This document shows, in pieces, positions 51-58,823 of a stretch of DNA of 64,000 nt. The translations under genes and the position numbers were made by a program. Location of the stretch: IMG/VR virus record IMGVR_UViG_3300009093_000007; one strand, given 5' to 3'. Numbering within the stretch: the first letter of the stretch is position 1; every line of letters starts with the position of its first letter. The stretch is from an uncultured virus (IMG/VR IMGVR_UViG_3300009093_000007) (taxonomy: Duplodnaviria > Heunggongvirae > Uroviricota > Caudoviricetes). Below the pieces are notes generated by a model, which was not told the origin of the DNA, searched no databases, and saw only the letters and a list, made by a program, of their open reading frames with translations.

Positions 51-123
51 TGGGTCCACCTGGATTCGAACCAGGGACCTGCCGGTTATGAGCCGGACGC
101 TCTAACCGCTGAGCTATGGACCC
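51..123 (-). tRNA. tRNA with CAT anticodon, most like tRNA-Ile2 (lysidine, reads AUA); tRNA-Met not excluded
   Basis: Reverse complement GGGTCCATAGCTCAGCGGTTAGAGCGTCCGGCTCATAACCGGCAGGTCCCTGGTTCGAATCCAGGTGGACCCA folds as a cloverleaf with a GTTCGAATC T-loop and CT-CAT-AA anticodon loop; no encoded CCA. Confidence 0.92.
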
Positions 124-2018: not shown

Positions 2019-2095
2019 ACAGGAGGGGTATTGCCCACTCACAGTGGCTAGATACATAAACCATATTATACTATAAAAGAAAAGAGGATGAGACT

Positions 2096-8882: not shown

Positions 8883-9229
8883 TGCCTACGTCGTTAACAC
8901 CAGACTCGATAGCCAAACTCCACCGTGATTTTCTCGCGCGCGTGGTAGCCGCTGTGGACGGTGAAGGAGATAATTTCCTAGCTGCTACACAAGCGGCGGT
9001 CCCTGTAATAACGGGTGCGTTGAAAGCGTCCGGCAAGAAGTCGGATGTCGTAGTGGACTCCGCTACCGGTTCGGTGTCCGTAACTGTCTCTTATGGCAAT
9101 CCGTCCGCTCCGTACGCCGCATACGTCCACGAAATCCCAACCGGCCAGCATCCTAAATACGTGGAAGGTCCGTTGAACGAGCTATCACCCGGGCTAATGT
9201 CACGTATCGCTAGTAAGATTAAGTCGTAA
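8882..9229 (+). CDS. HK97 gp10-like neck/tail component
   Basis: VPV.TGALKASG, APYAAYVHE, PKYVE.P motifs. Confidence 0.75.
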   Translation: MPTSLTPDSIAKLHRDFLARVVAAVDGEGDNFLAATQAAVPVITGALKASGKKSDVVVDSATGSVSVTVSYGNPSAPYAAYVHEIPTGQHPKYVEGPLNELSPGLMSRIASKIKS

Positions 9230-12200: not shown

Positions 12201-15200
12201 GGGAGGAGGAAGCCCAACGGCGATTTGGCGCGGTTGGTGAATTCATCATCTCCAATATGCGCGAGCATATTACTCAGCTTGACGAGAACAGTGCACAGTC
12301 TATCCGCGCTATACGTCAAGTAATTGATAATTTCGCGGAAGCTATAGGCGGGACCGTTACTGATCTAGCTAAAATAGGAATCCAGGTACGCAACGACGGC
12401 AAGGCGTTCGCTGCGTATGTTGAGGATAAATTTCTCGGGTACTTTGCCAGTGCTGACGAGGCTATCAAGGCCGCTGTTACTGCCGCACTACAAGATCCTA
12501 AATCATCAATCCGCGGCCTGTCGGATCTCGTACGGCAAGGACTGGCCGGGTATAATAGCTCACCTGTCTCGACGCTAGACGATTTAGCGAAATTCCTGAC
12601 TAAGCTCCGTGAGATATCTGATCTTGGCAAATTGCCGGATCAGATCCAGGTTAAAGCTACACTCGATCATCTAGCTAGTCTAACAGACGCACTATTACAA
12701 GTACGCGATGTTACTCCCGCTGTCGCACAAGGTTTCCTTGACCTCGCCGCCGCTGGCGCTCAAACCCTGTCAACGTGGCGCGATTCGATTACCGGAACAC
12801 AACGTACGGCATACGAGATCTTCGAACGTAGTAAGCTAGCGTTCAACGCTGAAAGGGATTCACGGGAAGCGGCGCTTAAAGCTCAGTATGAAGAGACCAA
12901 AGCCAGACTCCTAGCGGCAGGTGTAACGGTACAGACGACGCAACAAATAGTGGGAGCATTGGCATCGTTATCGGCTGCAAGCGGAGCTAACTACGGCGGC
13001 GGATCTGGATATAGTGGCGGACCCGGTGGCGGGCTTACAGGATCGAATGGTGGTACTAACCTCGGCGGCGGCGGAGGAACAGGCGGTCCTAACATCGTAC
13101 TTACTGGCGGCACACCTAAGCCGGTGCCCGGCAAGGATGATCTAATTGCCAGCCTCAAAGCACTGCTTGATTCACTTCTACAGGGCCTTGCAGACTTACC
13201 GGCCAAAATCACCGAAGCAGATTTCCGCAATCCTAACGCTTCTAACTTCTACGCTAAACAATTAGATGATGCTGTAGATTCATTCCGCCGAGTAAGCGAT
13301 GCGCTCGCGAAAGCCTCAGAAACATCTGATCAATTCGCGTCTGATTTAGCTTCGGCATTGTCAAACGTCGCACAATCCTTCATAGATACGCGCGATGCAA
13401 TCACAGGCCACACTCGCTCTGCCGTTGAAGAGCTTGAGATTAAAAAGCAACAAGCGGCATTGTTTAACGCTGAATTGCCGCTCGAGATTGCCAATCTTAA
13501 AGCAGAAGTGGCCAAAGACCAAGCATTGCTTGCCACTGCCGGCATAACTAACACTTACGCGGCGACTGTACTAGAGAGTGGGAAAGCCGTAGCTGTACTG
13601 GCGCAGATTACCGCTCAGACTATTGTTCTAACTGGCCAGTTGTCGGAAGCGGAAATCGAGGCAACGCAACGTAAAATAGATGCACTAAATGGTGTTATCC
13701 AAGTATTAGAACAGATTAAGCCGATTGATATATCAGAGATTCACGTCCAAGGTGGCGGTGGTGGATCTGCAAGCGGTAAATCGCCAGCGCAAGAGTTAGC
13801 GGCGTTCTTTGCAGCATTCGACCGTAGTCTACTCCCGCAACTGTCGCAACAAATCTATGACATCAATAAGAAATACGACGATGAAATCAAGCTCCACGCT
13901 AAAGATCACACAGCGATAGATCAGCTTAATAAGGACCGTGAGGCGGAGATAGCACTTGTCCAAAAGGCCGCGCGCGAGGTAGGAGTAAAGAATGCTCAAA
14001 GTTTTATCGATAGCGGACTGCCCGGATTAGTCACACAGATCAACGGTGTACATAACACGTCACAAGGGTTGATCGATTCGTTACGGGCGTTGAATTCTCA
14101 AGGTGCGCTATCGACACAGGAATTGCATAGATTAGTTCCGGCTATCCGAGCGGCTGAGCAGGCACAAGTAGCTGCTATCAAGGGCGGTGTATTACAATCT
14201 ATTGACGATTTCGCTGCCACTATCGCTAATCAGGGTTTGCCAGGGCAGTTAAAGGGGATTAGCGATCAATCCACCAGACTGCGCGACGCGCTCAATGCTC
14301 TGGCTGCTGCCGGGACGTTATCGGCGGATGAATTCTTCAAAGCAGCTGGTAAGATCAGTGACGCCGCTAAGGCACAGGAGCAGACGGCGTACGAATCCGC
14401 TGCCACGTCGTTACTGTCGGAGTTGTACGGATTCCTGCATGACGACACAGCATCGGCTAAGCTTAAATTCGATCTAACCCTGGCTGAATTGCAAATCCGC
14501 GAGGCTGAGCTAGAGAACGCTGTCAAACTCTACGGATTGGTTGGCGATTTCATACCGGAGATAAAAACCGCTATTGATAAGTTCAAAGCGGCCGGACCGG
14601 GAATATTCTCCAACTCCACCGACTTTACGGACCCGGCAACCATTCTCAGGCTAGCCGCTGAGAATCAAGCTAATGCCGGCAACAGTCTACAGTCGGCGGC
14701 ACAGGCACTATCTGCGGCGATTCAAAAGCTGTCCGATTACGGTGATTCACTATTAACCAATTCCACCCTCAGCGCCTTGACTCCGGCCGACCAGCTGGCA
14801 GAGGCGCGGGCGCAGTTGCAAGCGGATTACTCGCTAGCTAAATCCGGCAATCTCGATGCTATCAATGCCTATCAGGGGCTAGCTAATACGTTCTTGGGGT
14901 TGTCGAAAGCTCAGAACGTGTCAAATTCTACGTACGGCGTGGATTTCAAGCTAGTATTAGATGAGATCCAAGCTATTAAATCAGGTACTGGCTTAGTGTC
15001 GCTGCCTACGATATCGGCCGTGGGATCATTCGGTGGTAACGGTGGCGGCAACGGTAGCGGAGGCGGTATAGGTAGTGGCGGTGGTTCCGGTCAAACTTTG
15101 GCCGTAATCAACCTCGATCCGGTTGTATTGTCGATTGGCGCATCATCGAATCGCAACCATGATGATCTGTCAAATATGGCCGCAAAAGTGGGTGTATTGA

Positions 15201-15274
15201 CAGAGGTGGTACGTACACAGCAAGATCAATTGACGCGTGTGGTTAGCGTGTTAGAGCATGGGATGGTTCACTAA
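9269..15274 (+). CDS. tape measure protein
   Basis: 2001-aa Ala/Leu-rich helical protein after the chaperones; hydrophobic segments and internal repeats. Confidence 0.9.
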   Translation: MDVGTAQGAIVIDDKFSSVFASFQSGTSQILKSVSDLVAKLDALHTPQERTKTDAEKAEEAQRKSAVTINTVTESYRRLVSQLDPVVAGTKKYEDAHRTLSQAVEHGVISHHQYESALDKAKEKFLAAGGGASQFEHLLGKITELTSVAGPAAKEAAEKIGLLGEKAAGVTELVSSLGPLTPILLAVAAAVAVIGIAWKGFELASDFLKEAIKEGAEFEQTVAKLNNTLKANGSASGLSAHEILEFAESLSVATARPTAEITKGLAVLTQFQKIGHDTFERASRDILDYAQQVGTAPEEAFQKFGRALEGGQRGLRALEEVGGVFRQSQKATLRQMLDNGDVIGYQTLLLKILEEHVKGAAAAYEKTFNGQVAQAKNVLIDLKESIANQVLPALEDLVNDLVGSVGGWEMVRAGVKDLGKDIGEFIRSAIYHIGLWYHEWEELTWRVSANVQAAFGTLIGGSLDGLAKLFEFLGRIPGIYSSVFSSLAVSAKGVADSVTDHFVKGSGEAMRHVGEETLAIATLTTQYRIHRTVLDGDTEVQNKHASSVDSVAGKVKDLAATYDEVNKALQAYSDKLSDQEHKLSLSKDSTEALLAAAKKGLYEYALEKDAQDRLNAVTAQTITLDREHRTEIEALTAAHDKLIKLGKTSDAASVSEIIKRQNDEYVKQRAHIAGLVNDKITLANRERIQLAVDNEEKSLLDQLAISRAKITDAENGNTDATRKLNAEIAAEKDRLALLPPVIRLYFEGLRDSNVEAIKLLDTTKGIAGLRLQAQFDVAVSNIDSSLSSNLQQIEAKYLDFLRSIGRGSIDEGTRLLQDYATAHKVTLDKLTADIKAAIGQIDDARTVARYRNADKTPFDVYVEERANIERLMSASEDEVHLTVSAGQAAILKLEQDHWHSVVSTWAGALQTLGSVTGGFIAKLAQLAQILQNSQSVSSGVSSGVSQLGGSSALSGGAGAIAGEVYLVYAIKAFFEAQWEEEAQRRFGAVGEFIISNMREHITQLDENSAQSIRAIRQVIDNFAEAIGGTVTDLAKIGIQVRNDGKAFAAYVEDKFLGYFASADEAIKAAVTAALQDPKSSIRGLSDLVRQGLAGYNSSPVSTLDDLAKFLTKLREISDLGKLPDQIQVKATLDHLASLTDALLQVRDVTPAVAQGFLDLAAAGAQTLSTWRDSITGTQRTAYEIFERSKLAFNAERDSREAALKAQYEETKARLLAAGVTVQTTQQIVGALASLSAASGANYGGGSGYSGGPGGGLTGSNGGTNLGGGGGTGGPNIVLTGGTPKPVPGKDDLIASLKALLDSLLQGLADLPAKITEADFRNPNASNFYAKQLDDAVDSFRRVSDALAKASETSDQFASDLASALSNVAQSFIDTRDAITGHTRSAVEELEIKKQQAALFNAELPLEIANLKAEVAKDQALLATAGITNTYAATVLESGKAVAVLAQITAQTIVLTGQLSEAEIEATQRKIDALNGVIQVLEQIKPIDISEIHVQGGGGGSASGKSPAQELAAFFAAFDRSLLPQLSQQIYDINKKYDDEIKLHAKDHTAIDQLNKDREAEIALVQKAAREVGVKNAQSFIDSGLPGLVTQINGVHNTSQGLIDSLRALNSQGALSTQELHRLVPAIRAAEQAQVAAIKGGVLQSIDDFAATIANQGLPGQLKGISDQSTRLRDALNALAAAGTLSADEFFKAAGKISDAAKAQEQTAYESAATSLLSELYGFLHDDTASAKLKFDLTLAELQIREAELENAVKLYGLVGDFIPEIKTAIDKFKAAGPGIFSNSTDFTDPATILRLAAENQANAGNSLQSAAQALSAAIQKLSDYGDSLLTNSTLSALTPADQLAEARAQLQADYSLAKSGNLDAINAYQGLANTFLGLSKAQNVSNSTYGVDFKLVLDEIQAIKSGTGLVSLPTISAVGSFGGNGGGNGSGGGIGSGGGSGQTLAVINLDPVVLSIGASSNRNHDDLSNMAAKVGVLTEVVRTQQDQLTRVVSVLEHGMVH

Positions 15275-15708
15275 TGGTTGCCGACGCACAATATCCCAAC
15301 AATAATACCGATAGCGCCTTGATTGACGAACTAATACGTGACTATGGCGAGGTGTTTACAGTCGCCGGGCTGGCGTATGAGCGTGTAGTGCTTATCGTAA
15401 CCAAGGACGCGGAAAAGGTTAAATCGGCTCTAGATTCACACCTCACATGGTGGCGTAAGTTGGACGAGGCGCGGCAACGAGCGCTTGTGAATATGACTTT
15501 CGGTCTAGGTGTGAATGGGTTACTGTCCTTTAAGAACACCTTAGCGGCTTTGGAGAGCGGTAATTTCGATTCCGCCGCGGATGCCATAGTTGACTCTAAA
15601 TGGTATAAACGGGATGAGACGCACGCTAGTAGGATAGCCAATATTATCCGTTACGGCAATGACGGCGGCGACAGCGTAGTCACACGGGCTCGGACGTCTA
15701 ACCTATGA
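15274..15708 (+). CDS. T4-lysozyme (GH24)-fold protein lacking catalytic residues
   Basis: RQRALVNMTFGLGVNGLLSFKNTLAAL...DSKWY matches the lysozyme C-lobe; N-lobe truncated. Confidence 0.75.
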   Translation: MVADAQYPNNNTDSALIDELIRDYGEVFTVAGLAYERVVLIVTKDAEKVKSALDSHLTWWRKLDEARQRALVNMTFGLGVNGLLSFKNTLAALESGNFDSAADAIVDSKWYKRDETHASRIANIIRYGNDGGDSVVTRARTSNL

Positions 15709-18571: not shown

Positions 18572-20884
18572 GTGCAACATAGGTATAATCAAATTGTCAG
18601 TATAGCGGCGGCTACGTTGGCGGTATTCGTTTGTAGCACTAACGCCCATGCTCAGGACATACCTATCACCGGCCTGCCGCACGTATCGAGCATACAACCA
18701 ACAGACGCATTTATCTTCCAACGGGCTGGAGCTACACGAGACAACTTCATCTACCAGTCTGAGTTATTCAGTGGATACGCTTCGCTCGCCACACCGGCTA
18801 TAAGCTGGGCAGTATACGCTGCCGACTATGGCGTCGGTGTAAGTAGCTCGGCCGCAACCAACGATGCCGGTATCGCCGCCGCTATTGCTGCCCTGCCCGC
18901 TTCCGGCGGCACCGTCGTACTACCGTGCGGTAATGGAATAAGTATCTCTGCTACGATTACACTCGGCAACGCGACGACCACAACCGCAAGCACTCGCAAC
19001 GGTATTACACTGACCGGTTGCGGTACCGGCCCCGACGGTATCAATATGGCAGCCGTCTCCGGCGCTACCCGTCTCATCTGGGCAGGATCGGCAGGCGGAA
19101 GGATGGTAGAAATTCACGGCCCAATCGAGGGAGTCAACCTCAGTGATTTCACACTCGACGGTGCCGGTCTAGCGGCTCAACTTATCCACTCCTACCGATC
19201 TTTTCAACAAGACGTACGTCGAATGAGCCTCATCCAGTGGACGGGTACCGCAATCGCAATTGATGCCGATGGAACCTATACCGGTGCCGGTGGCGGCGGT
19301 GGCGGTGGTGCGCCGTTCCAACAAACTAGGGAACTAGTTAATATCATTAACCCTTCGTCTACCTCCGCTAATGCTGTTACGATTGGATCGAACGTCAACG
19401 GCAACTACAACGTTAACGAAGTGACGTTCACGCGGTGCCAACTAGAACGCGGTAATACAGACAACGCCTATTCTCTTTGGCTCGGTAATGTAGACCACGC
19501 AACCTTTGTTCACTCTTGGTTCCTTCGTCGTAGTTCCACTACCGGTAAGGCGATTATCGTTGCACCTCAGTCCGGCGCGCCTACTTGGCCTAGCAATATA
19601 ACCTTCATCGCATCCCCTCTTCAGGGCGGCATCTATCTCGATCAATCCGCAGCTACGTGGTCGAATACCGCTAATCCGGCGCTTCTTTTTTACCCATTCT
19701 ACACTGCTGACAGTCAAGCCATTCCGCCTGTCGGAGCGATCTCGACTACTCTTCCCGCGACCCTTGTTGGCGGTATGACAGATACCGGCATGCCGCTTTC
19801 CGGTAGTCAAACGCGTATCTCTCTGTCTACAAATCAAGGTATGTCAGCTAATCAAGAAGCGTTCGGCAATAACGGTATCCTTTTCGAGGGTGCAACGTCC
19901 GATGCCTTCGAGACCTTTCTGACCGTGACCGATCCGACTGCCGACCGTACGATTACTCTACCGAATGTGAGCGGAACTGTCGTTACAACCGGCGACACCG
20001 CGACCGTTACCGCTGGTATGCTTGCTAACGCTCTTCCGGCGAACACGACCGCTGTAGCAAACCAATTCTTTACGGCTTATAATTCGGCCACAGGGGCATA
20101 CACAAAAGCTCAACCGGCGTTCACGGACATATCCGGCGTCACGACTATCGGCCAGATTCCCACCGGCACAACGTCCACGACCGTGGCACTAGGCAACTCC
20201 AAAACAAACGGCCCCGGCGGCTCAAAATATAGCACCGATCGTATACCGTCGTCAAATACAGACGCCCCTTGCACAGATGAATTCCTTACGGCTACAGAAT
20301 CCGGAACTTGGCGCTGGGGTAATCAAGGCTCAAGCACTCAAGCTTTGACCGGCGATGTTCGCCAGATCACAATCGGCGCTGAAACAACCAATGTCCACGT
20401 TAGGTGGTGTACGCCGCCCGCCGCAACGGATTGGACGTTTGGCGCCAAAGTATCATGTTTCGCATCAAACTCAGCGAATGCCTGTGGCCTTGCGGTCCTA
20501 GAAACCGGCACAGAGGCCACACCCACCGCTCTGTCGTTCGTCCTAGAAGGTAACGGCAACGGTACCCCGGTCTATGTAACAAAGACCTCTTACACGTCGG
20601 CCTATGCTGGCACAGCCGGTGGGCCGCTTACTTGGGGATCGCTCTTGACAGCCGGTCTCACACACTGGCAAGAAATCACCTACGTATCAAGCTCTAAGAC
20701 GATAGCGTATAAGATCTCACTCGACGGGATCTTTTGGTTTCAGGTCAACTCAAAGGTTTTAGGCGCTAACCCGGTATCGCTCGGTACTTTTGTAGACGCC
20801 AATACAGCTTCAAATACGGGGCTAACAGGGATCTTCTACTACACTCGTTTAGTCAAATCGTCCAACGGATTGATAGGGCAGTAG
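18572..20884 (+). CDS. tailspike/fibre-like protein with pectate-lyase-like beta-helix and C-terminal lectin-like domain; N-terminal signal peptide
   Basis: GGAGG then GTG at 18572; AADYGVG..ATNDAGIAAAIAA..GGTVVLP beta-helix start; DPTADRTITLPN fibre motif. Confidence 0.7.
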   Translation: MQHRYNQIVSIAAATLAVFVCSTNAHAQDIPITGLPHVSSIQPTDAFIFQRAGATRDNFIYQSELFSGYASLATPAISWAVYAADYGVGVSSSAATNDAGIAAAIAALPASGGTVVLPCGNGISISATITLGNATTTTASTRNGITLTGCGTGPDGINMAAVSGATRLIWAGSAGGRMVEIHGPIEGVNLSDFTLDGAGLAAQLIHSYRSFQQDVRRMSLIQWTGTAIAIDADGTYTGAGGGGGGGAPFQQTRELVNIINPSSTSANAVTIGSNVNGNYNVNEVTFTRCQLERGNTDNAYSLWLGNVDHATFVHSWFLRRSSTTGKAIIVAPQSGAPTWPSNITFIASPLQGGIYLDQSAATWSNTANPALLFYPFYTADSQAIPPVGAISTTLPATLVGGMTDTGMPLSGSQTRISLSTNQGMSANQEAFGNNGILFEGATSDAFETFLTVTDPTADRTITLPNVSGTVVTTGDTATVTAGMLANALPANTTAVANQFFTAYNSATGAYTKAQPAFTDISGVTTIGQIPTGTTSTTVALGNSKTNGPGGSKYSTDRIPSSNTDAPCTDEFLTATESGTWRWGNQGSSTQALTGDVRQITIGAETTNVHVRWCTPPAATDWTFGAKVSCFASNSANACGLAVLETGTEATPTALSFVLEGNGNGTPVYVTKTSYTSAYAGTAGGPLTWGSLLTAGLTHWQEITYVSSSKTIAYKISLDGIFWFQVNSKVLGANPVSLGTFVDANTASNTGLTGIFYYTRLVKSSNGLIGQ

Positions 20885-20941
20885 TGGCTATAACGTGGCG
20901 ATAAGAAGGCAAAACAGGGGCAAATAAGGGTAATAATCATT

Positions 20942-21889
20942 ATGTCATCGCCGATTATCGCTAGCCCTGCCCTATCCGATTCTATTGTACTAGTCGGCGG
21001 CGTCACGGCCGGATCTATGCCGTTATCGTATCTACAAACCGATCAACCCAGCGACCGCACGCGATTTACTGATCTAAGCGTCTTGTACGCTCCCGGTGGC
21101 GGATCGGCTGTAGCCTCATCTGGTGCATATGTTGTATTAGATTTCGGAACACCAGTCGCCTTACATCTACACTACTTCGGAATGACAAATGCCAGTACAT
21201 TCGCTGCGATTCGTAAAAGAGGCGGAAATAACCCCGATCCTACAATATCACCGGTGTATGATACTGTAATAGGACTAGGCACAGGATCGGCTCATGACAT
21301 ACCATTAGCACCAGTCGATGGGTTGAAAGCTGTTGGTATATCTAAAATCCCGCATATCGATTTCAGCTCCGCAGGTTTTGGCGGATCATCATTTCGATAT
21401 TGGCGGTTTGATTTTATCGATCCAGACAATCCGGACGGCTATCTAGACATCGGTCGCATGATCTTAGCGTCCTTCTCCTCTATCAATGGCGCTCCGCCGT
21501 CGTGTTATCAATTCCCGCGTGGCGTGTCAGCGTCCAATAGTTCAATCGGATTCAACGAACCGACTGTGCGACTAGAGACAGCTGGCCGTCAAACATATTC
21601 GGCCGTACGTACGCCATTAGATCAGCAGAAGTTTTCCATCGCCGCTGTTAAGGAGTCTGACTTATTAGGTTCTCTCCGTGCGATTCGTGCTACTAGAGGA
21701 AATTCACGTGGCGTATTGTGGATAGAAAATCCCGCCGATCCGGCTGTGATAGCACAAAAGACCGTATACGGCCTAATGACTATTAACGATAGTCCACATT
21801 TAGGGCTTATGGCTGTCGGTGGAGTAGTGGTATTTGCCCCGTACACGCAAGTTTACACAGTTGACGGTTCGATTGTAGCGATGAATTAA
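20942..21889 (+). CDS. minor tail / distal tail-like protein
   Basis: RYWRFDF.DPDNPDGYLDIGR motif seen in tail proteins. Confidence 0.6.
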   Translation: MSSPIIASPALSDSIVLVGGVTAGSMPLSYLQTDQPSDRTRFTDLSVLYAPGGGSAVASSGAYVVLDFGTPVALHLHYFGMTNASTFAAIRKRGGNNPDPTISPVYDTVIGLGTGSAHDIPLAPVDGLKAVGISKIPHIDFSSAGFGGSSFRYWRFDFIDPDNPDGYLDIGRMILASFSSINGAPPSCYQFPRGVSASNSSIGFNEPTVRLETAGRQTYSAVRTPLDQQKFSIAAVKESDLLGSLRAIRATRGNSRGVLWIENPADPAVIAQKTVYGLMTINDSPHLGLMAVGGVVVFAPYTQVYTVDGSIVAMN

Positions 21890-22086
21890 ACTAAGATAAG
21901 GTGATCATTAAAATGGGCGAACGTAAGGAACCTACACCGTTGCCTGAAGGCGTACGTAAGCCTATGCCTCCTCCGGCACCACCACCTCCACGCCGCAGCA
22001 CAATTACTATTAAGTTTAGACCAATAAAAGAAACTCTCCGCAACTTATCTGCTTACGATAGTGACGGTATAGTGGTGGACTAGAAA

Positions 22087-22278
22087 ATGTCTATTTTAAC
22101 CGACGATCAACGCGCTATCTTCGACGCTTGGTACACGTCACACAGCAAGTCGACTCTAGACGTCGCCGATCCTGACACCTTGCGAGTGCTAGCGGAGGCG
22201 TCATTCGAGGAAGGGGTTAAGGCGGCGGAGTCGCGATCGGCTGAAAGCTACGAAACTAGGTATGGCGGTAAAAAGTAG
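22087..22278 (+). CDS. hypothetical protein
   Basis: Operon spacing. Confidence 0.5.
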   Translation: MSILTDDQRAIFDAWYTSHSKSTLDVADPDTLRVLAEASFEEGVKAAESRSAESYETRYGGKK

Positions 22279-22287
22279 GCTATCACC

Positions 22288-23139
22288 ATGGCTAACGACA
22301 AATCACCGGCTTTAGTCGGCGTCTCCACTTCCACCGTTGGTACAGGCGACTACGCTTGTGGCACAGCTCTCCCCGGCTTTCGCACGTTCAACTCCGGTGT
22401 ACTATCAGACGGCGATACATTCCCGTACGAATGTATTGACAAGACGACCACGCCATACACTTTCGAGCGCGGCCGTGGGCGGTTCAATGCCGGGCCTAAC
22501 ACTGTCACACGCGTACTAGTCACATCCAACAGTGCCAATAACACAGCTCCTATCTCATGGGGCGCTGGCGGCTCGCGCAATCTATTCATAGACGACGGCG
22601 ACCAAGCCACGGCCAGATCAGTATTGGGACTAGACACAGCGGCGTATCTTCCGGTCGGTACAGGCGCCAATCAGATCGTCCAACTCGATGGTACCGCTCA
22701 TATTCCGACATCACTCTATACGACTCTGCCACACACCCATTCGTCAATCGTCTCGTCTATAGCATGGGCGGGCGGGTCTAACTCAAATATCCTAAAGTGG
22801 TCCTCGGCCGGTGTATTAGCTGCTGCCGGGCTGGGCGATTCGGTTACCGCTCTATGGCCATTATGGGCAAAAGGTTCGGACGGCGTATATTACACATTCG
22901 GCGAAGTGCCGTTCACCGGGGTTGTGGCTGGACAGCGTTACTATCTCGGAGTAGCTGGCGCTATCTCTACCACATTTTCCAACGGCGTAAACGACATACC
23001 GGACGGTACGCATATTATGGTAATAGTAGGGTATGGCGCCGCGACCGGTGTATTGTTCTTTAACCCATCGCATCCGTTCGCGTCTATCTTGTCCTCTGGT
23101 ACGGCGTTGAAGCTTGAGCATGGCGACTTTAAGGTGTAA
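22288..23139 (+). CDS. tail fibre-related protein
   Basis: STSTVGTG...GFRTF...FERGRG..TVTR N-terminal fibre module; VGTGANQIVQLDG repeat. Confidence 0.65.
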   Translation: MANDKSPALVGVSTSTVGTGDYACGTALPGFRTFNSGVLSDGDTFPYECIDKTTTPYTFERGRGRFNAGPNTVTRVLVTSNSANNTAPISWGAGGSRNLFIDDGDQATARSVLGLDTAAYLPVGTGANQIVQLDGTAHIPTSLYTTLPHTHSSIVSSIAWAGGSNSNILKWSSAGVLAAAGLGDSVTALWPLWAKGSDGVYYTFGEVPFTGVVAGQRYYLGVAGAISTTFSNGVNDIPDGTHIMVIVGYGAATGVLFFNPSHPFASILSSGTALKLEHGDFKV

Positions 23140-23186
23140 TGTAGCGACCGGTCAATAAACTAGAAACGTAGAATTGGAGAACGTAA

Positions 23187-23816
23187 ATGGAAACCTACCG
23201 CAGCATCCCCGTTTGGCTCCGTGTCGGCAATTCGGCAGACGAAATCATCTATCGCGACCGCTCCGGCGCCGTCGCCCGTGCGTCATGGTTACCTGACGAA
23301 TCGCACGACACATTTGGCGTAAAAATCGGCGGCGAAGACTCCCCCGTCTCGGGTACCTTAGTCGGCGAACGGTATTCCCGTCAGCTCCTCCAACAGGCTA
23401 TCCGGGTGGGCGCCCTACCGCTGCGTACTGATTATGTCGTGACGGACCGCGATGACGACCTTATGAAGCTGGTAGCGATTGGCGACCTCCCCGCTTGGGA
23501 CGCTCTCGTAGCGCCTGTCCTGGCCCGTCTACACCTGTCTGCTCCTCCTAGCTCAGGCCCTGGCGACTCCAACCCCGGCGTGGTGCCGCCTACCCCTGGC
23601 CGGCCGGACGGTGGTGTCCTAGAGAAGCCTACGCCCATCGGTACGGCACAGGACCCGGCTATGGGACTGGTGTTTAAGCTTCAGGACGCACTCCGCGGCA
23701 TGGCGGATGTGCAGGTATTTGATGCTGTCAGTTTGAAGATTGTCAAGATGAGCGACACGGAATACTGGCGAACCACGGTGGCGCCGCTGTTGAAGTCGAT
23801 GTTTATGTCGAGCTAA
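23187..23816 (+). CDS. hypothetical protein
   Basis: GGAG RBS; 209 aa. Confidence 0.65.
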   Translation: METYRSIPVWLRVGNSADEIIYRDRSGAVARASWLPDESHDTFGVKIGGEDSPVSGTLVGERYSRQLLQQAIRVGALPLRTDYVVTDRDDDLMKLVAIGDLPAWDALVAPVLARLHLSAPPSSGPGDSNPGVVPPTPGRPDGGVLEKPTPIGTAQDPAMGLVFKLQDALRGMADVQVFDAVSLKIVKMSDTEYWRTTVAPLLKSMFMSS

Positions 23817-23867
23817 GACAGGCTAATCAGACAGACGGACAGCGGCGCGCGCATCGGAGACTGTGAT

Positions 23868-24341
23868 ATGACATATCAACCGCACGGCATGTGCTGGCTC
23901 TGGGATTACCGTCTAATCCTTCTCCATGCGCCGTCCGATTTCGCTACCTTTATCGCATATAGCATCATTGTCATTGTCGCGGCGTACGTCTATCGCTGTG
24001 GCACTCTATCACACCTACGCACGGCTTATCCGCGGCTGTGGAAGTCTGGCGCCGGATTCGTCGGCACATGTGGGCTATCGCACTTGGGAAATTTCCTAGA
24101 AGTGTGGTATGGCGGCAGTCTGTACTGGATGTCGGGCGTTAACAAAGTCATAATGGCAGTATTCTCACTGTACTTCGCCGTACAGTTCTACCGCGTCCGT
24201 GACGAGCTAGTGCTAGCCGGAAGAGTACTCCACGCTTCGGCGGATTTTTTACAGGCACATATTGACGGCGAGCGTGTGGAATTTGATCGTAAACAGCCAC
24301 ATCCGCCGCAGCCGTCGCCACAGCCGCCGCTGTCTCAATAG
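23868..24341 (+). CDS. stand-alone ETR1-type ethylene-binding (Cu) three-TM domain
   Basis: PHGMCWLW...SDFATFIAY...GFVGTCGLSHL...YWMSG..KVIMA.FS aligns to ETR1 SDFFIAIAY/FIVLCGATHL/AKVLTAVVS. Confidence 0.75.
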   Translation: MTYQPHGMCWLWDYRLILLHAPSDFATFIAYSIIVIVAAYVYRCGTLSHLRTAYPRLWKSGAGFVGTCGLSHLGNFLEVWYGGSLYWMSGVNKVIMAVFSLYFAVQFYRVRDELVLAGRVLHASADFLQAHIDGERVEFDRKQPHPPQPSPQPPLSQ

Positions 24342-24361
24342 TGTAACGATAACAGCCGCAC

Positions 24362-24811
24362 ATGCCCATCATCGCTCAAATGCCCGGACTCGATCCCACC
24401 CCCTACACGGCGTGGGGAGTACTTGGTTTGCTTGGCGTGTCGTTAATAGTGATGCTGGGGGTGGTCTGGAAATTAATCACCCAGCAGACAGCCAACATGA
24501 AAACGCGTGATGAGCTAATCATGAATTTCGTAGATCGCCACCGTAGCGAAACAACCAAAACACTAGCCGAAGTCGCTAATACCATAGCGGCATCCGGTGA
24601 GCGTCAAGCCGCTGCCGCTACAGCATCAAATGAAAAGATTGGCGCTATCCTTACCCGCCACACTAGAATGCTGGACGAGGTATTAATGTCTAATCGCGTA
24701 CTAGACAAGATTTCTGCTATGAAACAGTCCGGCGTGACTATGAGTCAAGCCGAAATAGAAACCCTTGTACGGACAATCATGCATGAACGCTCCACTGCCC
24801 GAGAGGGATAG
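24362..24811 (+). CDS. single-TM plus coiled-coil protein, holin-like
   Basis: WGVLGLLGVSLIVMLGVVW TM then helical tail; position after tail genes. Confidence 0.5.
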   Translation: MPIIAQMPGLDPTPYTAWGVLGLLGVSLIVMLGVVWKLITQQTANMKTRDELIMNFVDRHRSETTKTLAEVANTIAASGERQAAAATASNEKIGAILTRHTRMLDEVLMSNRVLDKISAMKQSGVTMSQAEIETLVRTIMHERSTAREG

Positions 24812-24813
24812 AT

Positions 24814-25146
24814 ATGCGCCAGCCGTGGGGGTCTGTCGAGAAGTGGGGGCCGTGTGTGGTAGCGGTTATTGCGCTATTTGCTGTGATAGGGATAGGGTGG
24901 ACTACTTCAAGTCGAATGTCGAAAATCGAAGGACACACATACGCGCATAGTACCGCGCATGATGGGATGGAGATAGCTTTAAGAGCCGAAATTCAAACTT
25001 GGCAAGCGTATGTCGTAAGCCTGCAAGCAATTATGATTAAAAATGGCATTAAAGACGTACCATTGCCGCCTAAACCGTTATCGCCATTATCGTCGCCGTC
25101 GTCATGCCCATCGAACTGCCCGCCAACTAAAAAGAAGGAGAAGTAA
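24814..25146 (+). CDS. single-TM membrane protein (lysis accessory?)
   Basis: VVAVIALFAVIGIGW TM; Pro-rich, basic C-terminus. Confidence 0.5.
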   Translation: MRQPWGSVEKWGPCVVAVIALFAVIGIGWTTSSRMSKIEGHTYAHSTAHDGMEIALRAEIQTWQAYVVSLQAIMIKNGIKDVPLPPKPLSPLSSPSSCPSNCPPTKKKEK

Positions 25147-25150
25147 CATC

Positions 25151-25468
25151 ATGGCCGGAGCCGCATGCAAGGTTATTATCAACAATACCACCCAGGCGCT
25201 ATCTAGATCCCTGGAGACCATCCTCACCAACCCTGATATCCACGGCGGCATGATTCCTGAGCGTGATCGCAAAACGATGTTGCAATCGCTAGCGGACATC
25301 GATATCCTAGCGTTCACCGGCGTGTATAACGCGCCTGGTACGCCTCTAGGACTGCTAGATATCGTCTTAAAGCTTGAGACGTGTGGGCTAATCACAGACG
25401 ACGTGTGGAAGGTGCTGCCTAGGCCGGCTAGGGCGGGGGTTGGAAATGGTGGCATCAAGAAGAGATAG
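25151..25468 (+). CDS. hypothetical protein
   Basis: AAGGAG RBS before ATG 25151. Confidence 0.6.
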   Translation: MAGAACKVIINNTTQALSRSLETILTNPDIHGGMIPERDRKTMLQSLADIDILAFTGVYNAPGTPLGLLDIVLKLETCGLITDDVWKVLPRPARAGVGNGGIKKR

Positions 25469-25492
25469 TCAATAGACCGGGCTGTAAAGTGG

Positions 25493-25531
25493 AAAGGCGC
25501 CTGGAGGTCGACCCACTCAGGCGCCTTTTTT
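25493..25531. terminator. bidirectional intrinsic terminator
   Basis: AAAGGCGCCTG...CAGGCGCCTTTTTT between convergent genes. Confidence 0.8.
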
Positions 25532-25552
25532 CTCTTCTGTGATTCGAGCCGG

Positions 25553-25816
25553 TTACTGTCCTGCCAACCTCGCCAATTCCGTCTCGATAGCCACTTCGAT
25601 AACGACGGCGGCCGCTGCTTTGACGAACGGATTGCCGATCCGCGACAACGCCTGATCGATTAACGGCTTCAGTTCCGCCCGGCCTTCTGGACTGGCGAGG
25701 TAGCTGAATAGAGCGGCGTTGAATGATGTGGCGTCGACGGAGGCGTGCTCGGTAGCGGCGACGGCGGAGGCGGATAGATCTTGTCCGGGTTGTGGCGGAT
25801 TCATTGGGATTTCCAT
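25553..25816 (-). CDS. hypothetical protein
   Basis: GAGGA RBS. Confidence 0.6.
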   Translation of the reverse strand: MEIPMNPPQPGQDLSASAVAATEHASVDATSFNAALFSYLASPEGRAELKPLIDQALSRIGNPFVKAAAAVVIEVAIETELARLAGQ

Positions 25817-25860
25817 AGCCTATAATCCTCTTATCGGTCGACTTGTACGCGCGGTGAATT

Positions 25861-26325
25861 TTAGACACTCGGCGGCGGAGGCGGCGCGGTTGTGGCAATC
25901 GCGGCCTTAACCTTATCGTCCAACGCTTTAAGCTTGGCGGTCAGCTCGACCTCTACCGCGGTATCGCCGTTCGCTTGTGCCTCTGCCAGTTGACGCTTTA
26001 AATCCTCGATCTCTGCCAGATCCTTGGCGATCTCCGCCGAGTCTGCGGCAATCGTAGCCGCCTGTGATGCCTCTGTGGCTTCCGCCGTTGCCAGTGCGTT
26101 AGCCAGGCTATCGACGTCGGTTTCCAGCATGTTCTCGATATTCTTCAAGTCGTCAGCTTCCTTTGACATTCGCTTCTCCATACGGTTAAGTTGGGCGGAC
26201 ATTTGACCTAATTGATGTGTGATGACGTGTAGAGCATTGATGATGTAGTCTACTTTACTTGGGAACACTGGAATGCGGCTCATGGTGACGGGTGAGGTTG
26301 GCGGTTGTGGCAACATTGGTTTCAC
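25861..26325 (-). CDS. acidic coiled-coil protein
   Basis: Heptad-rich; GGGGA RBS; downstream of promoter 26387-26415. Confidence 0.6.
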   Translation of the reverse strand: MKPMLPQPPTSPVTMSRIPVFPSKVDYIINALHVITHQLGQMSAQLNRMEKRMSKEADDLKNIENMLETDVDSLANALATAEATEASQAATIAADSAEIAKDLAEIEDLKRQLAEAQANGDTAVEVELTAKLKALDDKVKAAIATTAPPPPPSV

Positions 26326-26386
26326 ATTTCTATCCCCCTTTAAGGCCGGTTTATTCGGTATTTATTTGGCGTTGTCTGTGTGCATT

Positions 26387-26467
26387 ACTCTACCCTTGTT
26401 GCGGCCACAAGTCAAGAACTTCCGCCTTACTTGCCCGGAACGAAATGTGGTAAGTGTGTGGTAGGCT
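26387..26467. promoter_or_regulatory. divergent promoters: leftward TTGACT-17-TAGAGT; rightward motif plus TGG-TAGGCT
   Basis: Consensus spacing; 23-bp motif at 26417-26439 identical to 35942-35964. Confidence 0.65.
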
Positions 26468-26510
26468 GTGAATCGTCAAGAGGGAGATAAAAGGAAAGGA
26501 CGGTAGTGAA

Positions 26511-26753
26511 ATGGCAGATAATGACATTCACGTCAACCGTACCGGCTATTGGGTTACGTACCGCGCTAATTCTAGCGAAGATCGTGACGACCGCGATATT
26601 ATACGCACGTACGCCTGTACCGATCTGGAGGGGTTGTACGCTCTAATCGACCACTTAACTGGCCGACCTACCGACTCGTTTCCGTTAGACAGTCGCGGAT
26701 TGCCAATAGCGCCGAATGTGACGATTGCATACCCGTTGCATATTTACAGTTAA
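26511..26753 (+). CDS. hypothetical protein
   Basis: AAGGA RBS. Confidence 0.55.
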   Translation: MADNDIHVNRTGYWVTYRANSSEDRDDRDIIRTYACTDLEGLYALIDHLTGRPTDSFPLDSRGLPIAPNVTIAYPLHIYS

Positions 26754-26992
26754 GCCAGAAGGTAACCACTATGAAATACGATCGCCACGGCGCCTGTGCT
26801 CAACGTGGTCAACAGTTCCACCGCCACTCCTATCCAATCGGCCGCGCGACGTTAAAATCCGCTAATAACGTTGAAAGCCCGACTGGATTTAGATCTAGAG
26901 GACCCGCTGCGGAGAGACAAGCGAGAAGATTGGCGCGACAGGCGGAGAGGAAAGATAAAATCGCTGTACACGACAATGGGCGACCCCGGTAA

Positions 26993-28696
26993 ATGTCACT
27001 CGGCCGCGTCACACCCAACCCACCTCCGTCCTCTTCACGTTCGTCACATTTACGTGTCGAGCCATTGGGTGCCGCCGTTCTATCTCCACCCCGTCTCGAC
27101 CCGCGCGCTATCGGTCTACCATCAAAGTTCTCCCGCCTCTACCAGCAACAAGAGGACTGCATACTACAGGCACTATCCTCACCCAAACGATTCATAGGCA
27201 TATTCGCGCCGACCGCTTCCGGTAAAACAGCCATATACGTCTCTATCGCTCTTCTCCGCCACGATCGCGCACAAATCAACGTTCACACTAAAGCACTCCA
27301 AACTCAAATCACCAACGACTTTCCCTCGATATTCTCTATCACCGGTCATCGCAATTACTGCCCGCTAACTGTCTCGGAAGCAGACGCCGACGTCACCGGC
27401 TGTCCATTACGTCAAGCGTGCCGCTATCGGCCGGAAGTAGAATACGCGGCAAAGTCGCAAATAATAGTCACGAACTATTCCCACGATTTCACCATCGCCA
27501 AATCATTCGCACCGGATAGGCTAGGCGACCGCTCATTACTAATCCTAGACGAGGCGCATGGCATCCATGACGAGCTGACCGGTCAAATGACAATTGACAT
27601 ATCGACTGCCCGGATTCATCGCCTCATCAATATGTCTGTGCCGAAATCGCTGTCAACTGTTGACTGGTATGATTGGTCTAGGGAAGCGATAGCTAAATGT
27701 GAAAGCCGCGCTATTACTCTTCACGATGAATACGAATCCGGCAGCACCAGAGGTACAGAACTACGCCGTCTAGGCCGATTATCATCCGATCTGAAACGAT
27801 TCGTCTCCTCGTCTGCCCCGGCCGGCACACCCGGCAGCGCACTCGGCGTTAACCCTCATTTCGCCGCCGTACCCTACGTCGTCAAGCATAAAGACGATTC
27901 CACCTGCTTCCTAATAACACCTGTTCTAGCCAAATCATTCGCCGAAGAATTCCTATTCCGCGGGATCTCCAAAATCATCCTCACATCGGCGTCAATCGAC
28001 CGCAAAGACATGTTTGACCTCGGGATCAAACCAGACGACTTGGAATATATAGAAGTTCCAAGCGTTATCCACCCGTCGCGACGTAAGATCTATTTTACAC
28101 CCACATCTCCACCGACCAGTCTCAAACACCCCGTGTCGAGCGGTGCATTACGTCTCCACTCTATGTTAGCCTCTGAGATCGTCTCCGGACGCCTCGACCG
28201 TCGCGGGTTGATTCAAACCCCGTCCTATCACGTCAATGGTAGATTTCTAGAGGATTTCAAGTTTCGTGACATCGTTATAACTCACGGTGCAGGTGGTGGG
28301 CGAAAGGCTGTCGAGACGTTTAAATCGTCACTAATTCCTAGCGTACTCGTTTCGCCGGCAGTGAGAGAGGGTTATGATTTTCCATATGAAATGTGCTCAT
28401 ACGGAATCATTCTCAAACTTCCATGGCCAAACACACACGACAATCCAGAATTAGCTATGCGATGTAAACTAGACAAGGACTATCGCGAGCGGTTCGTTAC
28501 GCAGCAGATGGAACAAATGATAGGCCGGATTGTGCGTACACCTGGCGATCGGGGCGAAATATTTATCATTGACGAGCAGTGGGGGTGGTTTGTCAAATCT
28601 GCGCCGCTTCATCAGTATGTACGCGATGCGTTGGTAGATTGTTCGGAGAGGGGTAGAGTGCTGCCACTGCCACCGAAGTTGGACTATCAGATATGA
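26993..28696 (+). CDS. DinG/XPD-family SF2 helicase
   Basis: APTASGKT, LILDEAH, EGYDFP, KLPWP, QMIGRIVRTPGDRG. Confidence 0.9.
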   Translation: MSLGRVTPNPPPSSSRSSHLRVEPLGAAVLSPPRLDPRAIGLPSKFSRLYQQQEDCILQALSSPKRFIGIFAPTASGKTAIYVSIALLRHDRAQINVHTKALQTQITNDFPSIFSITGHRNYCPLTVSEADADVTGCPLRQACRYRPEVEYAAKSQIIVTNYSHDFTIAKSFAPDRLGDRSLLILDEAHGIHDELTGQMTIDISTARIHRLINMSVPKSLSTVDWYDWSREAIAKCESRAITLHDEYESGSTRGTELRRLGRLSSDLKRFVSSSAPAGTPGSALGVNPHFAAVPYVVKHKDDSTCFLITPVLAKSFAEEFLFRGISKIILTSASIDRKDMFDLGIKPDDLEYIEVPSVIHPSRRKIYFTPTSPPTSLKHPVSSGALRLHSMLASEIVSGRLDRRGLIQTPSYHVNGRFLEDFKFRDIVITHGAGGGRKAVETFKSSLIPSVLVSPAVREGYDFPYEMCSYGIILKLPWPNTHDNPELAMRCKLDKDYRERFVTQQMEQMIGRIVRTPGDRGEIFIIDEQWGWFVKSAPLHQYVRDALVDCSERGRVLPLPPKLDYQI

Positions 28697-28863
28697 ATAA
28701 TAATAGGAATAATAATAGGTACGGGTGGCATATTCTAGCTAGAGCGCATGACCATATATATAATGCCAAAAGTATACCACTGAAAGAGCGTGTCGAGAGT
28801 TGCTATCTAGTTATTCGGTTAATGATAAATCTGTTACCCGCCCCGAAAAGGAGACCAGTCGCC

Positions 28864-29088
28864 ATGAAAGCCACCGTTCACGCTGAAATCACGTTCGACC
28901 TAGCCACACCAAACGACTACGACGAGACGATTACGTCATGGGAAGACGCGGCGGAGTATGACCTTCAATATCTGACTATCACAATCGGAGATAACGACGT
29001 AATCTTTTCTACGTCATCATTGCAAATTGAAGGTAAGGAGGAATTTGAACGTACAGACGATGATGATGACGACCTAGACAAATTCTAA
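28864..29088 (+). CDS. acidic hypothetical protein (ORF extends upstream to 28693)
   Basis: AAGGAG RBS before ATG 28864. Confidence 0.5.
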   Translation: MKATVHAEITFDLATPNDYDETITSWEDAAEYDLQYLTITIGDNDVIFSTSSLQIEGKEEFERTDDDDDDLDKF

Positions 29089-29161
29089 CCACACAACCAC
29101 CGGGCCGATAATGGTTATCGTACCCGCCATTAAAACGTAGACAGACAGGGAGAAAAGTTAG

Positions 29162-30328
29162 ATGCCACTTAACCCCACTACACTACAGTTACCACAACAG
29201 ACCACAGCACAACAGCAGACGGCGACCACGGCGACCCCGCAACAAATTGTCACACCGGCCGCCGGCTCTATCATCCGCCCGCCCGGATTCGTCCCTTTCT
29301 CAATGGTCGATCCGGACAACGCCGAAGTTTACGGACTCGCAGACAGATTCCGCGCGACCATCCGCCTCGTCCGGGCCGTCCCTTACGACTACTTCCGCCT
29401 CCGTCGCCAGATCGCCGTACGGGACGGCAAATCAACCAAGGCTATCACCGGCCGTGACGGATACTCTCTTGCCGTTGTCGTCTACTTCGAGCCCGACCCA
29501 GGCCAAGGTTATGAGTCGCTCGACCCGGCATATTACTCGGCCGTGTCACTCTACAACTTCGTGCCTTCGCTGGACGGTATCAACGTCATTCCCAATGCTA
29601 CATGGGAGGGATTCCAGGAACTCGCCGAAGGTAAGGCCCATATCTTCCACGGCGCCACCAACGACCAACCCTACGAGCACGAAGATCTCCTCGAATACTC
29701 CGGGCCGTTTATGGCACCGGTAGGCGGGTTGGAAGACGACGGCACTCCCAAGCGCGGGCATCGTGGTATCGATTTAGGCTCCGATTGGAAGCACTTCCTC
29801 GACCATGCCGCGAGCGCCGGCTTGAAGATCGACCCGGCAGCGTGGGCGGCGAAGGGACTGGCAGCGTTCGAAGGGCATCGTGGCCGGTTTGACAGGATTA
29901 AGGTCAAGAACAAGAGGGAGGGCGAGCATGACGTCCTTCTTATGACAGAGTACATGGGGTTTAACGGAGTCGGTGGGCAGGTTAATGGTGGACAGGCCGT
30001 GACCGGGGCCACGAACGTACAGACACAAGCCAATCAGGCCGTGACTCCTTCGGCTCAAGCCCCTGCCGCAGCTCCAGCGCAGACCACCCCGGCGGCAGCT
30101 ATCAATCCCGCTATCGTCGAATTCGTTCGTATGGCCCTCGCGCAGGCAGGCGGCAAGCTGACTACCGGCCTGCTCATCTCGCAAGTGGCAGCGTCTCCGC
30201 TATTTACCGGTAATGGAGTTCTCACCGCCGAAGCCTACCGTACCCTCGCCGCACCAGACGCACCGGCTCGGCTGACAGCAGCTGGATTCGTAGTCAACCC
30301 GGCAACGGCCGAGGTATCGTTGTCGTAA
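29162..30328 (+). CDS. hypothetical replication-region protein (possible ssDNA-binding)
   Basis: GGGAG RBS; Q/T/A/P linkers; position between helicase and nuclease. Confidence 0.6.
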   Translation: MPLNPTTLQLPQQTTAQQQTATTATPQQIVTPAAGSIIRPPGFVPFSMVDPDNAEVYGLADRFRATIRLVRAVPYDYFRLRRQIAVRDGKSTKAITGRDGYSLAVVVYFEPDPGQGYESLDPAYYSAVSLYNFVPSLDGINVIPNATWEGFQELAEGKAHIFHGATNDQPYEHEDLLEYSGPFMAPVGGLEDDGTPKRGHRGIDLGSDWKHFLDHAASAGLKIDPAAWAAKGLAAFEGHRGRFDRIKVKNKREGEHDVLLMTEYMGFNGVGGQVNGGQAVTGATNVQTQANQAVTPSAQAPAAAPAQTTPAAAINPAIVEFVRMALAQAGGKLTTGLLISQVAASPLFTGNGVLTAEAYRTLAAPDAPARLTAAGFVVNPATAEVSLS

Positions 30329-38348: not shown

Positions 38349-38546
38349 ATGCCTAGAAAAAAGTCACACACTAAGCACCGAATGCGCTGTGCGATAGAGG
38401 AGTTGTACGATCAACTTGTTGAGATGAAAACTAATACGCTATGCTCGTGTAATGGGACATCCCATTACCCTTGTGCGCGTTGTGAAATCACGCGCAGAGA
38501 AACCGACGATTTGCTAAGCGCCATTACAGCCGAATACGGGTTTTGA
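38349..38546 (+). CDS. small Cys-rich protein inserted within the split polymerase
   Basis: CSC..H.PCARC; GAGAG upstream. Confidence 0.55.
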   Translation: MPRKKSHTKHRMRCAIEELYDQLVEMKTNTLCSCNGTSHYPCARCEITRRETDDLLSAITAEYGF

Positions 38547-54853: not shown

Positions 54854-54987
54854 TAGAATAGCAAATATTTGAAGGCAAGAGACAAATTGCGCTATCTCCG
54901 CGTGTCCGGCACAGCACAGTATAAAATATATAACCCAGATAACGAAAGTAAAAACAAATGCGCGCTTTAGGTCCTTGTGTCTAGTGT

Positions 54988-58805: not shown

Positions 58806-58823
58806 TGGTATACTCTCCTTTGC

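Follow-up and report, generated by a model that had tools for sequence, protein, structure and literature searches.

Ethylene-binding domains (EBDs) have so far been treated as sensor inputs fused to signalling domains. In the sections of PMC7700396 considered here, prokaryotic EBDs carry many kinds of output domain, and viruses appear only through giant-virus histidine kinases. For ETR1, the relevant passages assign roles in Cu(I)/ethylene binding and signal transfer to Asp25, Cys65, His69 and Lys91 (PMC10266040, PMC11819568) and give seven residues as needed for ethylene binding (PMC11819568). Here we describe a phage locus in which such a domain stands alone. It lies in a stretch of 64,000 nucleotides (nt) from an uncultured member of the Caudoviricetes (IMG/VR record IMGVR_UViG_3300009093_000007), the whole of which is called the window below. 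An EBD-like protein of 157 amino acids (aa) heads a cassette of four genes there, the other three being termed A, B and C. This protein appears to belong to a phage-borne branch that uses the bare domain and has repeatedly lost its copper ligands, and it is more likely to act on the host membrane, probably in lysis, than to serve as a hormone sensor.

Residues 16-111 of the EBD-like protein match positions 2-91 of the 97 in the Pfam profile PF25487 (ETR1_N), with an E-value of 5.7e-13 and 49.4 bits against a cut-off of 27. Pfam detected no GAF, kinase or other output domain in its 157 aa, and the protein falls into no PHROG family. The AlphaFold2 (AF2) model, computed from a 39-row alignment, has a mean predicted local distance difference test score (pLDDT) of 86.5, with helices at residues 14-44, 55-78 and 86-109 and a C-terminal helix at 111-142. 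Residue columns were scored against 95 multi-domain relatives of at least 230 aa, taken from among the 150 best matches of an exhaustive profile search. The near-invariant columns are matched at D24 (93 of 95), Y31 (95 of 95), I34 (94 of 95), C68 and H72 (95 of 95 each) and K93 (90 of 95); V35 stands where 88 of the 95 relatives have Pro and V65 where 91 have Ile, and six of eight key positions are kept in the window copy. The N-terminal PHGxCxxW is canonical, with P in 91, H in 94 and G, C and W in all 95 of these relatives. The positions D24, Y31, I34, V35, V65, C68, H72 and K93 are presumably equivalent to D25, Y32, I35, P36, I62, C65, H69 and K91 in ETR1 numbering, a correspondence partly backed by the published passages. 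The seven ethylene-binding residues of ETR1 are D25, Y32, I35, P36, I62, C65 and H69, and five of the seven are present in the window protein.

These results agree with a first-pass annotation of the window, which had described an ETR1-type, phage-encoded protein with three transmembrane (TM) segments and no output domain, the six conserved residues at ETR1 key columns, Val at the P36 and I62 equivalents and a bacterial-type PHGxCxxW N-terminus: the profile match, the three modelled membrane helices, the column counts (at least 91 of 95 at each position of the N-terminal motif) and the terminase, portal and tape measure genes of the same genome bear it out. The second motif that it singled out in the loop, CGTLSH, is present in the sequence but is not conserved, C44 being found in two and H49 in five of the 39 clade members introduced below. 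It had also suggested looking for a profile or structural match to the domain, and there only the Pfam half was obtained. Searching the PDB by sequence with the clade profile returned only a chance match (E 0.57), and a fold search of the PDB with the model gave no match at E ≤ 0.001; apparently no EBD structure has been solved. The gene and its copy in a near-identical phage (G001) differ by 10 synonymous and 3 non-synonymous changes, which gives a rough pN/pS of about 0.1; it is therefore a coding gene under purifying selection. On sequence grounds, the EBD-like protein is securely a genuine homologue of the ethylene-binding domain. Its membership among functional ethylene receptors is not secure: it carries no output domain, it agrees in five of the seven binding residues, and its branch tolerates loss of the metal ligands.

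A word-indexed search retrieved seven relatives, all of 137-167 aa, and the exhaustive profile search returned 4392 proteins at E ≤ 0.001. Among the latter, the 33 best cluster representatives are all short (119-190 aa; E 5e-50 to 1e-16), the first multi-domain sensor appearing at rank 34. The clade alignment comprises 39 short proteins picked by eye for the branch signature, with P0035, P0038, P0039, P0046, P0047, P0051, P0063 and P0065 left out. A tree was then computed from 78 rows, namely 40 stand-alone proteins (including the copy of phage G003), the eight left-out short proteins and 30 randomly sampled multi-domain N-termini. In this quick IQ-TREE reconstruction, which rests on few columns and leaves 43 of 75 inner forks unresolved, one branch with a Shimodaira-Hasegawa-like approximate likelihood ratio test (SH-aLRT) value of 92, below the 95% mark, has 39 of the 40 stand-alone rows together with P0039, P0047 and P0051 on one side, and all 30 multi-domain rows, five other short proteins and P0028 on the other. 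Five of the eight other short proteins thus group with the canonical sensors and not with the phage branch. To judge from these comparisons, the stand-alone proteins form an output-less, phage-borne branch of their own, and 32 of the 39 clade members still match ETR1_N at E ≤ 0.001. The signature positions conserved in at least 90% of the branch are Y42, G45, P55, L57, W58 and F103. G45 lies inside an insertion after TM1 that is absent from canonical forms, and E78, G82-G83 and R111 are common in the branch and rare in canonical forms. The branch is further marked by a longer TM1-TM2 loop (Y-x-Y-R-x-G-x-L ... Y-P-x-L-W), by E-x-W-x-G-G after TM2 and by F103 and R111 in or after TM3. Its C-terminal tails are hydrophilic, with a median length of 27 aa, 38% charged residues and a net charge of about zero.

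Both copper ligands, C68 and H72, are kept in 16 of the 39 stand-alone members, compared with 95 of the 95 multi-domain sensors; the same 16 of 39 holds for the alignment and for the stand-alone side of the tree, where the G003 copy is in and P0028 is out. The pair is incomplete in the other 23 members, His being replaced by Arg in 13 of the 39, and the state in which both ligands are present requires a minimum of nine changes on the tree. The nearest relatives of the window protein that keep Cys and His are P0002-P0004, P0006-P0011, P0013 and the G002 and G003 copies, and the close relative P0005 has Ser in place of Cys. The N-terminal Cys (C9) is found in 20 of 39 clade members and is kept in the window protein. 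The copper site therefore appears dispensable in the stand-alone branch, and its repeated loss suggests that the module does not need a copper/ethylene site.

Running a back-translated DNA pattern of the branch signature over IMG/VR gave five loci. Apart from G001, each of them encodes a true homologue (hmmsearch, E-values 4e-44 to 3e-58); L005 and L009 are one phage. Scans of IMG/VR with the A and C alignments gave six and four loci, every contig also carrying an EBD-like gene, and added phage G002. The EBD-like gene, A, B and C stand in the same order in all five phage lineages found, across three different genome contexts and a range of GC contents (window/G001 52%, G002 58%, G003 67.5%, G004 53%, G005 65%). 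Starts and stops within the module overlap or lie 1-28 nt apart; the gaps in the window are 20, 2 and 4 nt. An A or C homologue is recorded on an equal-sized contig for 8 of 12 EBD-like proteins, which is only a proxy for location on the same contig, and a further metagenome locus, L004 (1031 bp), shows 58% identity and ends at the contig edge. Alignment scans of one genome per species from 185,579 species found no relative of the EBD-like protein or of A, hence no prophage copy, and the GenBank phage collection gave no match to positions 20000-30000 of the window (megablast) or to the EBD-like protein (tblastn). The module follows the tail-fibre region in the window, G004 and G005, with a phrog_8610 protein upstream, and is followed by a DEAD-type helicase gene in the window and G004; in G003 it follows a Mu-F-like head gene. 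The complete four-gene cassette is kept in G005, whose EBD-like protein lacks both Cys and His, and in G004, where Arg replaces His. The unit under selection is the four-gene module, which seems to move as a unit between genome contexts, and since two lineages without an intact ligand pair keep all of it, ethylene or Cu sensing cannot be the core function of the cassette.

The window is most of one tailed phage genome, with genes for the large terminase subunit, portal protein, tail terminator, a 2001-aa tape measure protein, family A DNA polymerase, ThyX and a DEAD-type helicase. G001, an IMG/VR record of 69,203 bp with direct terminal repeats, is a near-identical phage whose EBD-like protein is 98% identical. 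The plus strand carries the structural genes and the cassette, which forms the last genes of the late operon. When the terminator behind it (Table 1) was folded, the minimum free energy was -24 kcal/mol (z -3.3), a value equalled by none of 200 shuffled sequences.

The first-pass annotation had seen two single-TM genes directly downstream of the EBD-like gene. A and B do have one hydrophobic helix each, but the cassette comprises four genes and the product of the last, C, is soluble. A start at 25043 for this last gene was replaced by the ATG at 25151. A has an N-terminal tail free of K and R and a conserved motif D-P-x-P..A.G..G.L, and by the positive-inside rule its C-terminal helical domain is predicted to be cytoplasmic. 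No consistent Pfam family emerged across 43 members of the A family, which comprises 75 clusters, all metagenomic; its neighbours in a protein language model are mostly viral single-helix proteins, with a weak likeness (0.88) to a cluster that has Holin_BhlA in 10% of its members. B, with homologues at the same position in the window, G002, G003, G004 and G005, carries W-G-P..VAV..LF.VIGIGW in its membrane helix and a conserved Q.W..YV..L in the next helix. The same rule predicts its N-terminus inside and its C-terminus outside, in the periplasm, and no Pfam or PHROG family was found for it. C begins with a nearly invariant M-A-G-A-A-C-K-x-I-I, C6 being present in 19 of 19 sequences, and its family comprises 26 clusters, all metagenomic. 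Its AF2 model (pLDDT 73.3; helices 3-26, 37-56 and 68-77) gave no PDB fold match at E ≤ 0.001; a protein atlas gave no usable feature match and, as structural neighbours, generic helical fragments, and C has no PHROG family. No family in Pfam, PHROGs or PADLOC and no kinase or regulator domain was matched by A, B or C, and none of the four cassette proteins matched any of 5027 PADLOC defence-system models. A predicted complex of A with the EBD-like protein scored 0.00 in a run without controls, which speaks neither for nor against binding.

We tentatively favour, at somewhat under even confidence, a late membrane complex that is holin-like or controls lysis and is built on a recruited sensor fold. 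The four products would form this late-expressed complex in the host cytoplasmic membrane, where it would control permeability at the end of infection, either in the manner of a holin or by timing lysis. By analogy with ETR1, the EBD-like protein is expected to have its N-terminus out and its C-terminus in, with the charged C-terminal helix in the cytoplasm; its three helices, oriented as in class I holins, could make it the polytopic, oligomerising core. The helical domain of A would lie in the cytoplasm and the coiled coil of B, with its Pro-rich tail, in the periplasm; C would join them as a small partner on the cytoplasmic side. The copper/ethylene site would be an inherited feature, retained in the sub-branch of the window, where it could still modulate the complex. 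This proposal is based on the late, operon-terminal position, on the complementary predicted topologies together with a cytoplasmic partner, on the endolysin and lipase of G003 and on the lipoproteins nearby. Behind the module in G003 come, in this order, a coiled-coil protein of 192 aa whose C-terminus carries a membrane helix, an endolysin of GH108+PG_binding_3 type (Pfam 2.8e-13 and 1.9e-12; PHROG endolysin 3.3e-28), two genes after the module, and a Lipase_3 protein. Ahead of the module, G004 has genes for a protein with two helices and for a lipobox protein; in G005, the gene behind C encodes a lipobox protein. The EBD-like protein has traits of holins (small size, three membrane helices, a hydrophilic charged C-terminus). 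A two-component spanin would call for a type II inner-membrane protein with a coiled coil in the periplasm and for the gene of a matching outer-membrane lipoprotein. B shows an N-terminal helix, a helical segment and a Pro-rich tail; lipobox proteins adjoin the module in G004 and G005, and no lipobox open reading frame (ORF) was seen in the window cassette. Finally, the passages concerned of a single study report that rice OsERS1/2 are non-selective cation channels whose activity needs Cys4/Cys6 and not Cys65 (PMC13261662, 2026). As this conductance, measured in full-length plant receptors, does not need the ligand Cys, a ligand-independent pore role of the EBD fold is plausible by analogy.

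A number of observations weigh against a role in lysis. An endolysin stands beside the module in G003 only, one of the five lineages; A, B and C accompany the EBD-like gene in five of five. The supposition that the cassette occupies the position of lysis genes is likewise half upheld: it ends the late operon, and in G003 it precedes the GH108 endolysin and lipase, but no endolysin adjoins it in the window. With Pfam and PHROGs none was found near the cassette, nor in the window together with positions 56000-63000 of G001, except for the lysozyme-like P0162. Residues 33-129 of P0162 align with the C-terminal lobe of T4-type lysozymes (63-162 of 177; PDB phmmer E 6.9e-11), its N-terminal catalytic part is short and divergent, and it is the sole peptidoglycan-hydrolase-like gene recognised in the window phage. 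The only recognised muramidase of G004 (PF11860, 1.2e-40) lies 16.5 kb upstream of the module, beside the tail terminator among head and tail genes, and no Pfam endolysin was found in G005 or in G002 (about 60% complete), both with crude ORF calls. In G002, moreover, the module comes immediately after the tape measure gene, with more tail genes following it. Pfam and PHROGs gave no holin, spanin or antiholin family for any of the four proteins. The loops of the module are highly conserved and the tails have a net charge of about zero and not a positive one; holin loops are usually far less conserved than those of the EBD-like branch. The topologies of A and B are predictions from the positive-inside rule, and all homologues are metagenomic. 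The window has other small hydrophobic ORFs, among them one of 50 aa with two strongly hydrophobic segments (Table 1), which could be a real small membrane protein, and as such an alternative holin candidate, or a chance ORF.

The same observations that count against lysis would fit a late membrane module with another task, such as superinfection exclusion, ion or copper handling, control of membrane potential during assembly, or interference with host envelope signalling, a family of explanations that we rate as unlikely, if the strongest of the competitors. The module is away from an endolysin in four of five lineages and inside the tail gene block in G002, its highly conserved loops and partners suggest specific protein contacts over a generic pore, and it moves between genome contexts like a moron. 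Its late position, co-directional with the structural genes, and the endolysin and lipase neighbours in G003 argue the other way, as does the lack of any match among the 5027 defence-system models; no observation speaks positively for any one of these tasks. We regard it as improbable that binding of Cu(I) and ethylene, or of some other small ligand, has persisted in the protein of the window's sub-branch and that A, B and C serve this protein as an output in trans, tuning the timing of lysis. The window copy keeps PHGxCxxW, D24, Y31, I34, C68, H72 and K93, its nearest relatives keep Cys and His, and this copy, with its six of eight key positions, may bind a ligand; moreover, passages of the literature report that the EBD alone, as the first 130 aa of AzoEtr1 fused to glutathione S-transferase, binds ethylene (PMC11819568) and that ethylene raised OsERS1 currents (PMC13261662). 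Against this stand the many clade members that lack Cys, His or both, including two phages that keep the whole module, the Ser of P0005, and the Val residues at the equivalents of Pro36 and Ile62, both of which belong to the seven needed for ethylene binding; retention of Cys and His in close relatives may also reflect shared ancestry. Slightly more doubtful still is a fuller scenario for this sub-branch, in which a four-protein channel would be gated by an EBD-like subunit that has kept Cu(I) and its affinity for ethylene (or for a different small ligand, unsaturated or redox-active). With a soil or plant-associated bacterium as host, the phage would then time lysis by a plant hormone, and branches without the ligand pair would be constitutive.

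Sensing of gas, alkenes or Cu, coupled to lysis timing, had been offered in the first-pass annotation as a possibility; the ligand losses (Cys and His in 16 of 39, at least nine changes), with G004 and G005 keeping the cassette without an intact pair, speak against it as the general mechanism. Its other suggestion, that the phage poisons host receptor dimers, found nothing in its favour in this analysis. Such a decoy, in which the output-less domain heterodimerises with host EBD sensors and silences them, would be in keeping with the dimerisation of ETR1-type receptors through the membrane domain described in passages of PMC10266040 and with the canonical C9 of the window protein, yet we consider it very improbable: the branch has moved far from canonical EBDs, also in the N-terminus that matters for dimers (C9 in 20 of 39), and the phages of this family range from 52 to 67% GC, which makes different hosts probable. 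Because the EBD-like gene co-occurs strictly with, and is translationally coupled to, three phage partner genes, a phage-internal complex is favoured over poisoning of host receptors.

The coordinates of the cassette and of other features are collected in Table 1. In the window, the two proteins encoded upstream of the cassette (209 and 283 aa) have no PDB sequence match. The C-terminal third of the 1291-aa ORF resembles glycosyltransferases of group 1/4 (PHROG glycosyltransferase 3.7e-24; Pfam Glyco_trans_1_4 3.8e-09), and the matching place in G004 is taken by the muramidase. The uracil-DNA-glycosylase-like and family A polymerase ORFs are separate in the window, with the 65-aa ORF between them, and both domains are in one 886-aa protein in G004; the separate ORFs could represent a split gene, a frameshift or an insertion. 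A 213-aa ORF call spans the tRNA-Met gene, which is on the other strand, and is therefore doubtful. In G003, the endolysin-lipase arrangement recalls the LysA/LysB pairs of mycobacteriophages.

Table 1. Positions of the cassette genes and of further features in the window and in related phages
Feature	Sequence	Coordinates	Strand	Description
Stand-alone EBD-like protein, 157 aa	window	23868..24341	+	Pfam ETR1_N, AF2 model, column counts
Protein A, 149 aa	window	24362..24811	+	single membrane helix (~17-37), helical C-terminal domain
Protein B, 110 aa	window	24814..25146	+	single N-terminal membrane helix, helical segment, Pro-rich tail
Protein C, 105 aa	window	25151..25468	+	soluble, helical; ATG 25151 behind AAGGAG
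Intrinsic terminator	window	25491..25531	+	GC-rich hairpin and U-run; closes late operon, convergent with minus-strand genes
Minus-strand gene	window	25553-25816	-	converges on terminator
Coiled-coil protein, 154 aa	window	25861-26325	-	converges on terminator; weak generic coiled-coil matches (Pfam, PHROGs, PADLOC)
P0162, 144 aa	window	15274-15708	+	T4-lysozyme-like; start overlaps stop of the 2001-aa tape measure gene
1291-aa ORF	window	2096-5971	+	between head and tail genes, just before tail terminator
476-aa ORF	window	36903-38333	+	uracil-DNA-glycosylase-like
65-aa ORF	window	38349-38546	+	
434-aa ORF	window	38553-39857	+	family A polymerase
50-aa ORF	window	54842-54994	-	7-nt overlap with large terminase gene end
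tRNA-Met (CAU)	window	51-123	-	
Three ORFs	G002 (L012)	7107-9186	+	directly after module; signal-peptide-like N-termini, two Cys-rich
Lipase and endolysin	G003 (L007)	267-1559 and 1573-2106	-	Lipase_3 (Pfam 2.2e-21) directly after GH108+PG_binding_3 endolysin
Tad4 homologue	G004 (L024)	15151-15591	+	Thoeris inhibitor (Pfam PF25186, E 5.2e-29)

A full-text literature search turned up no description of an EBD that is encoded by a phage or stands alone, as the first-pass annotation had supposed, and none of a bare three-helix EBD in a conserved four-protein phage membrane module. If the module controls lysis, it would be a holin or lysis-control system of a kind not yet described, with a recruited sensor fold as its basis, and would lend natural support to the claimed ligand-site-independent ion-channel activity of the EBD. 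If the ligand site is still used in the branch of the window, this would be the first case of a phage reading a plant hormone. In either case, biochemical and structural studies of a domain that is hard to solve can draw on this family for minimal natural proteins of 119-190 aa, some with the Cys/His pair and some lacking it.

Set beside the receptors, the window protein shares with the EBD (PF25487) of ETR1, SynEtr1/Slr1212 and AzoEtr1 the profile match, three N-terminal membrane helices, the bacterial PHGxCxxW and the Asp, Cys, His and Lys positions. It differs from them in having no GAF, kinase, PAS or other output, and no kinase or regulator among its neighbours; the phage branch stands apart, with its own loop signature, the insertion after TM1, ligands in 16 of 39 members and the four-gene membrane module. 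As for lysis systems, T4 holin T has a periplasmic regulator, RI, and a cytoplasmic one, RIII. By analogy, the cassette resembles class I holins such as lambda S105, and T4 T-RI-RIII, in its small three-helix protein of expected N-out/C-in topology with a charged tail, encoded at an operon end, and it resembles T4 further in a predicted bitopic partner with a periplasmic domain and a predicted small cytoplasmic protein. In contrast to lambda S105 and T4 T, it has no sequence or profile relation to holins, no adjoining endolysin in four of five lineages, conserved loops and a tail charge of about zero; in G003, the module does stand before the endolysin. Rice OsERS1/2 belong to the same membrane domain family, and their conductance, independent of the ligand Cys65 in the passages concerned (PMC13261662), would fit a role as a pore that persists once the ligand site is gone; that single study used full-length plant receptors in oocytes, human embryonic kidney (HEK) cells and yeast, unlike the isolated domain of the phages.

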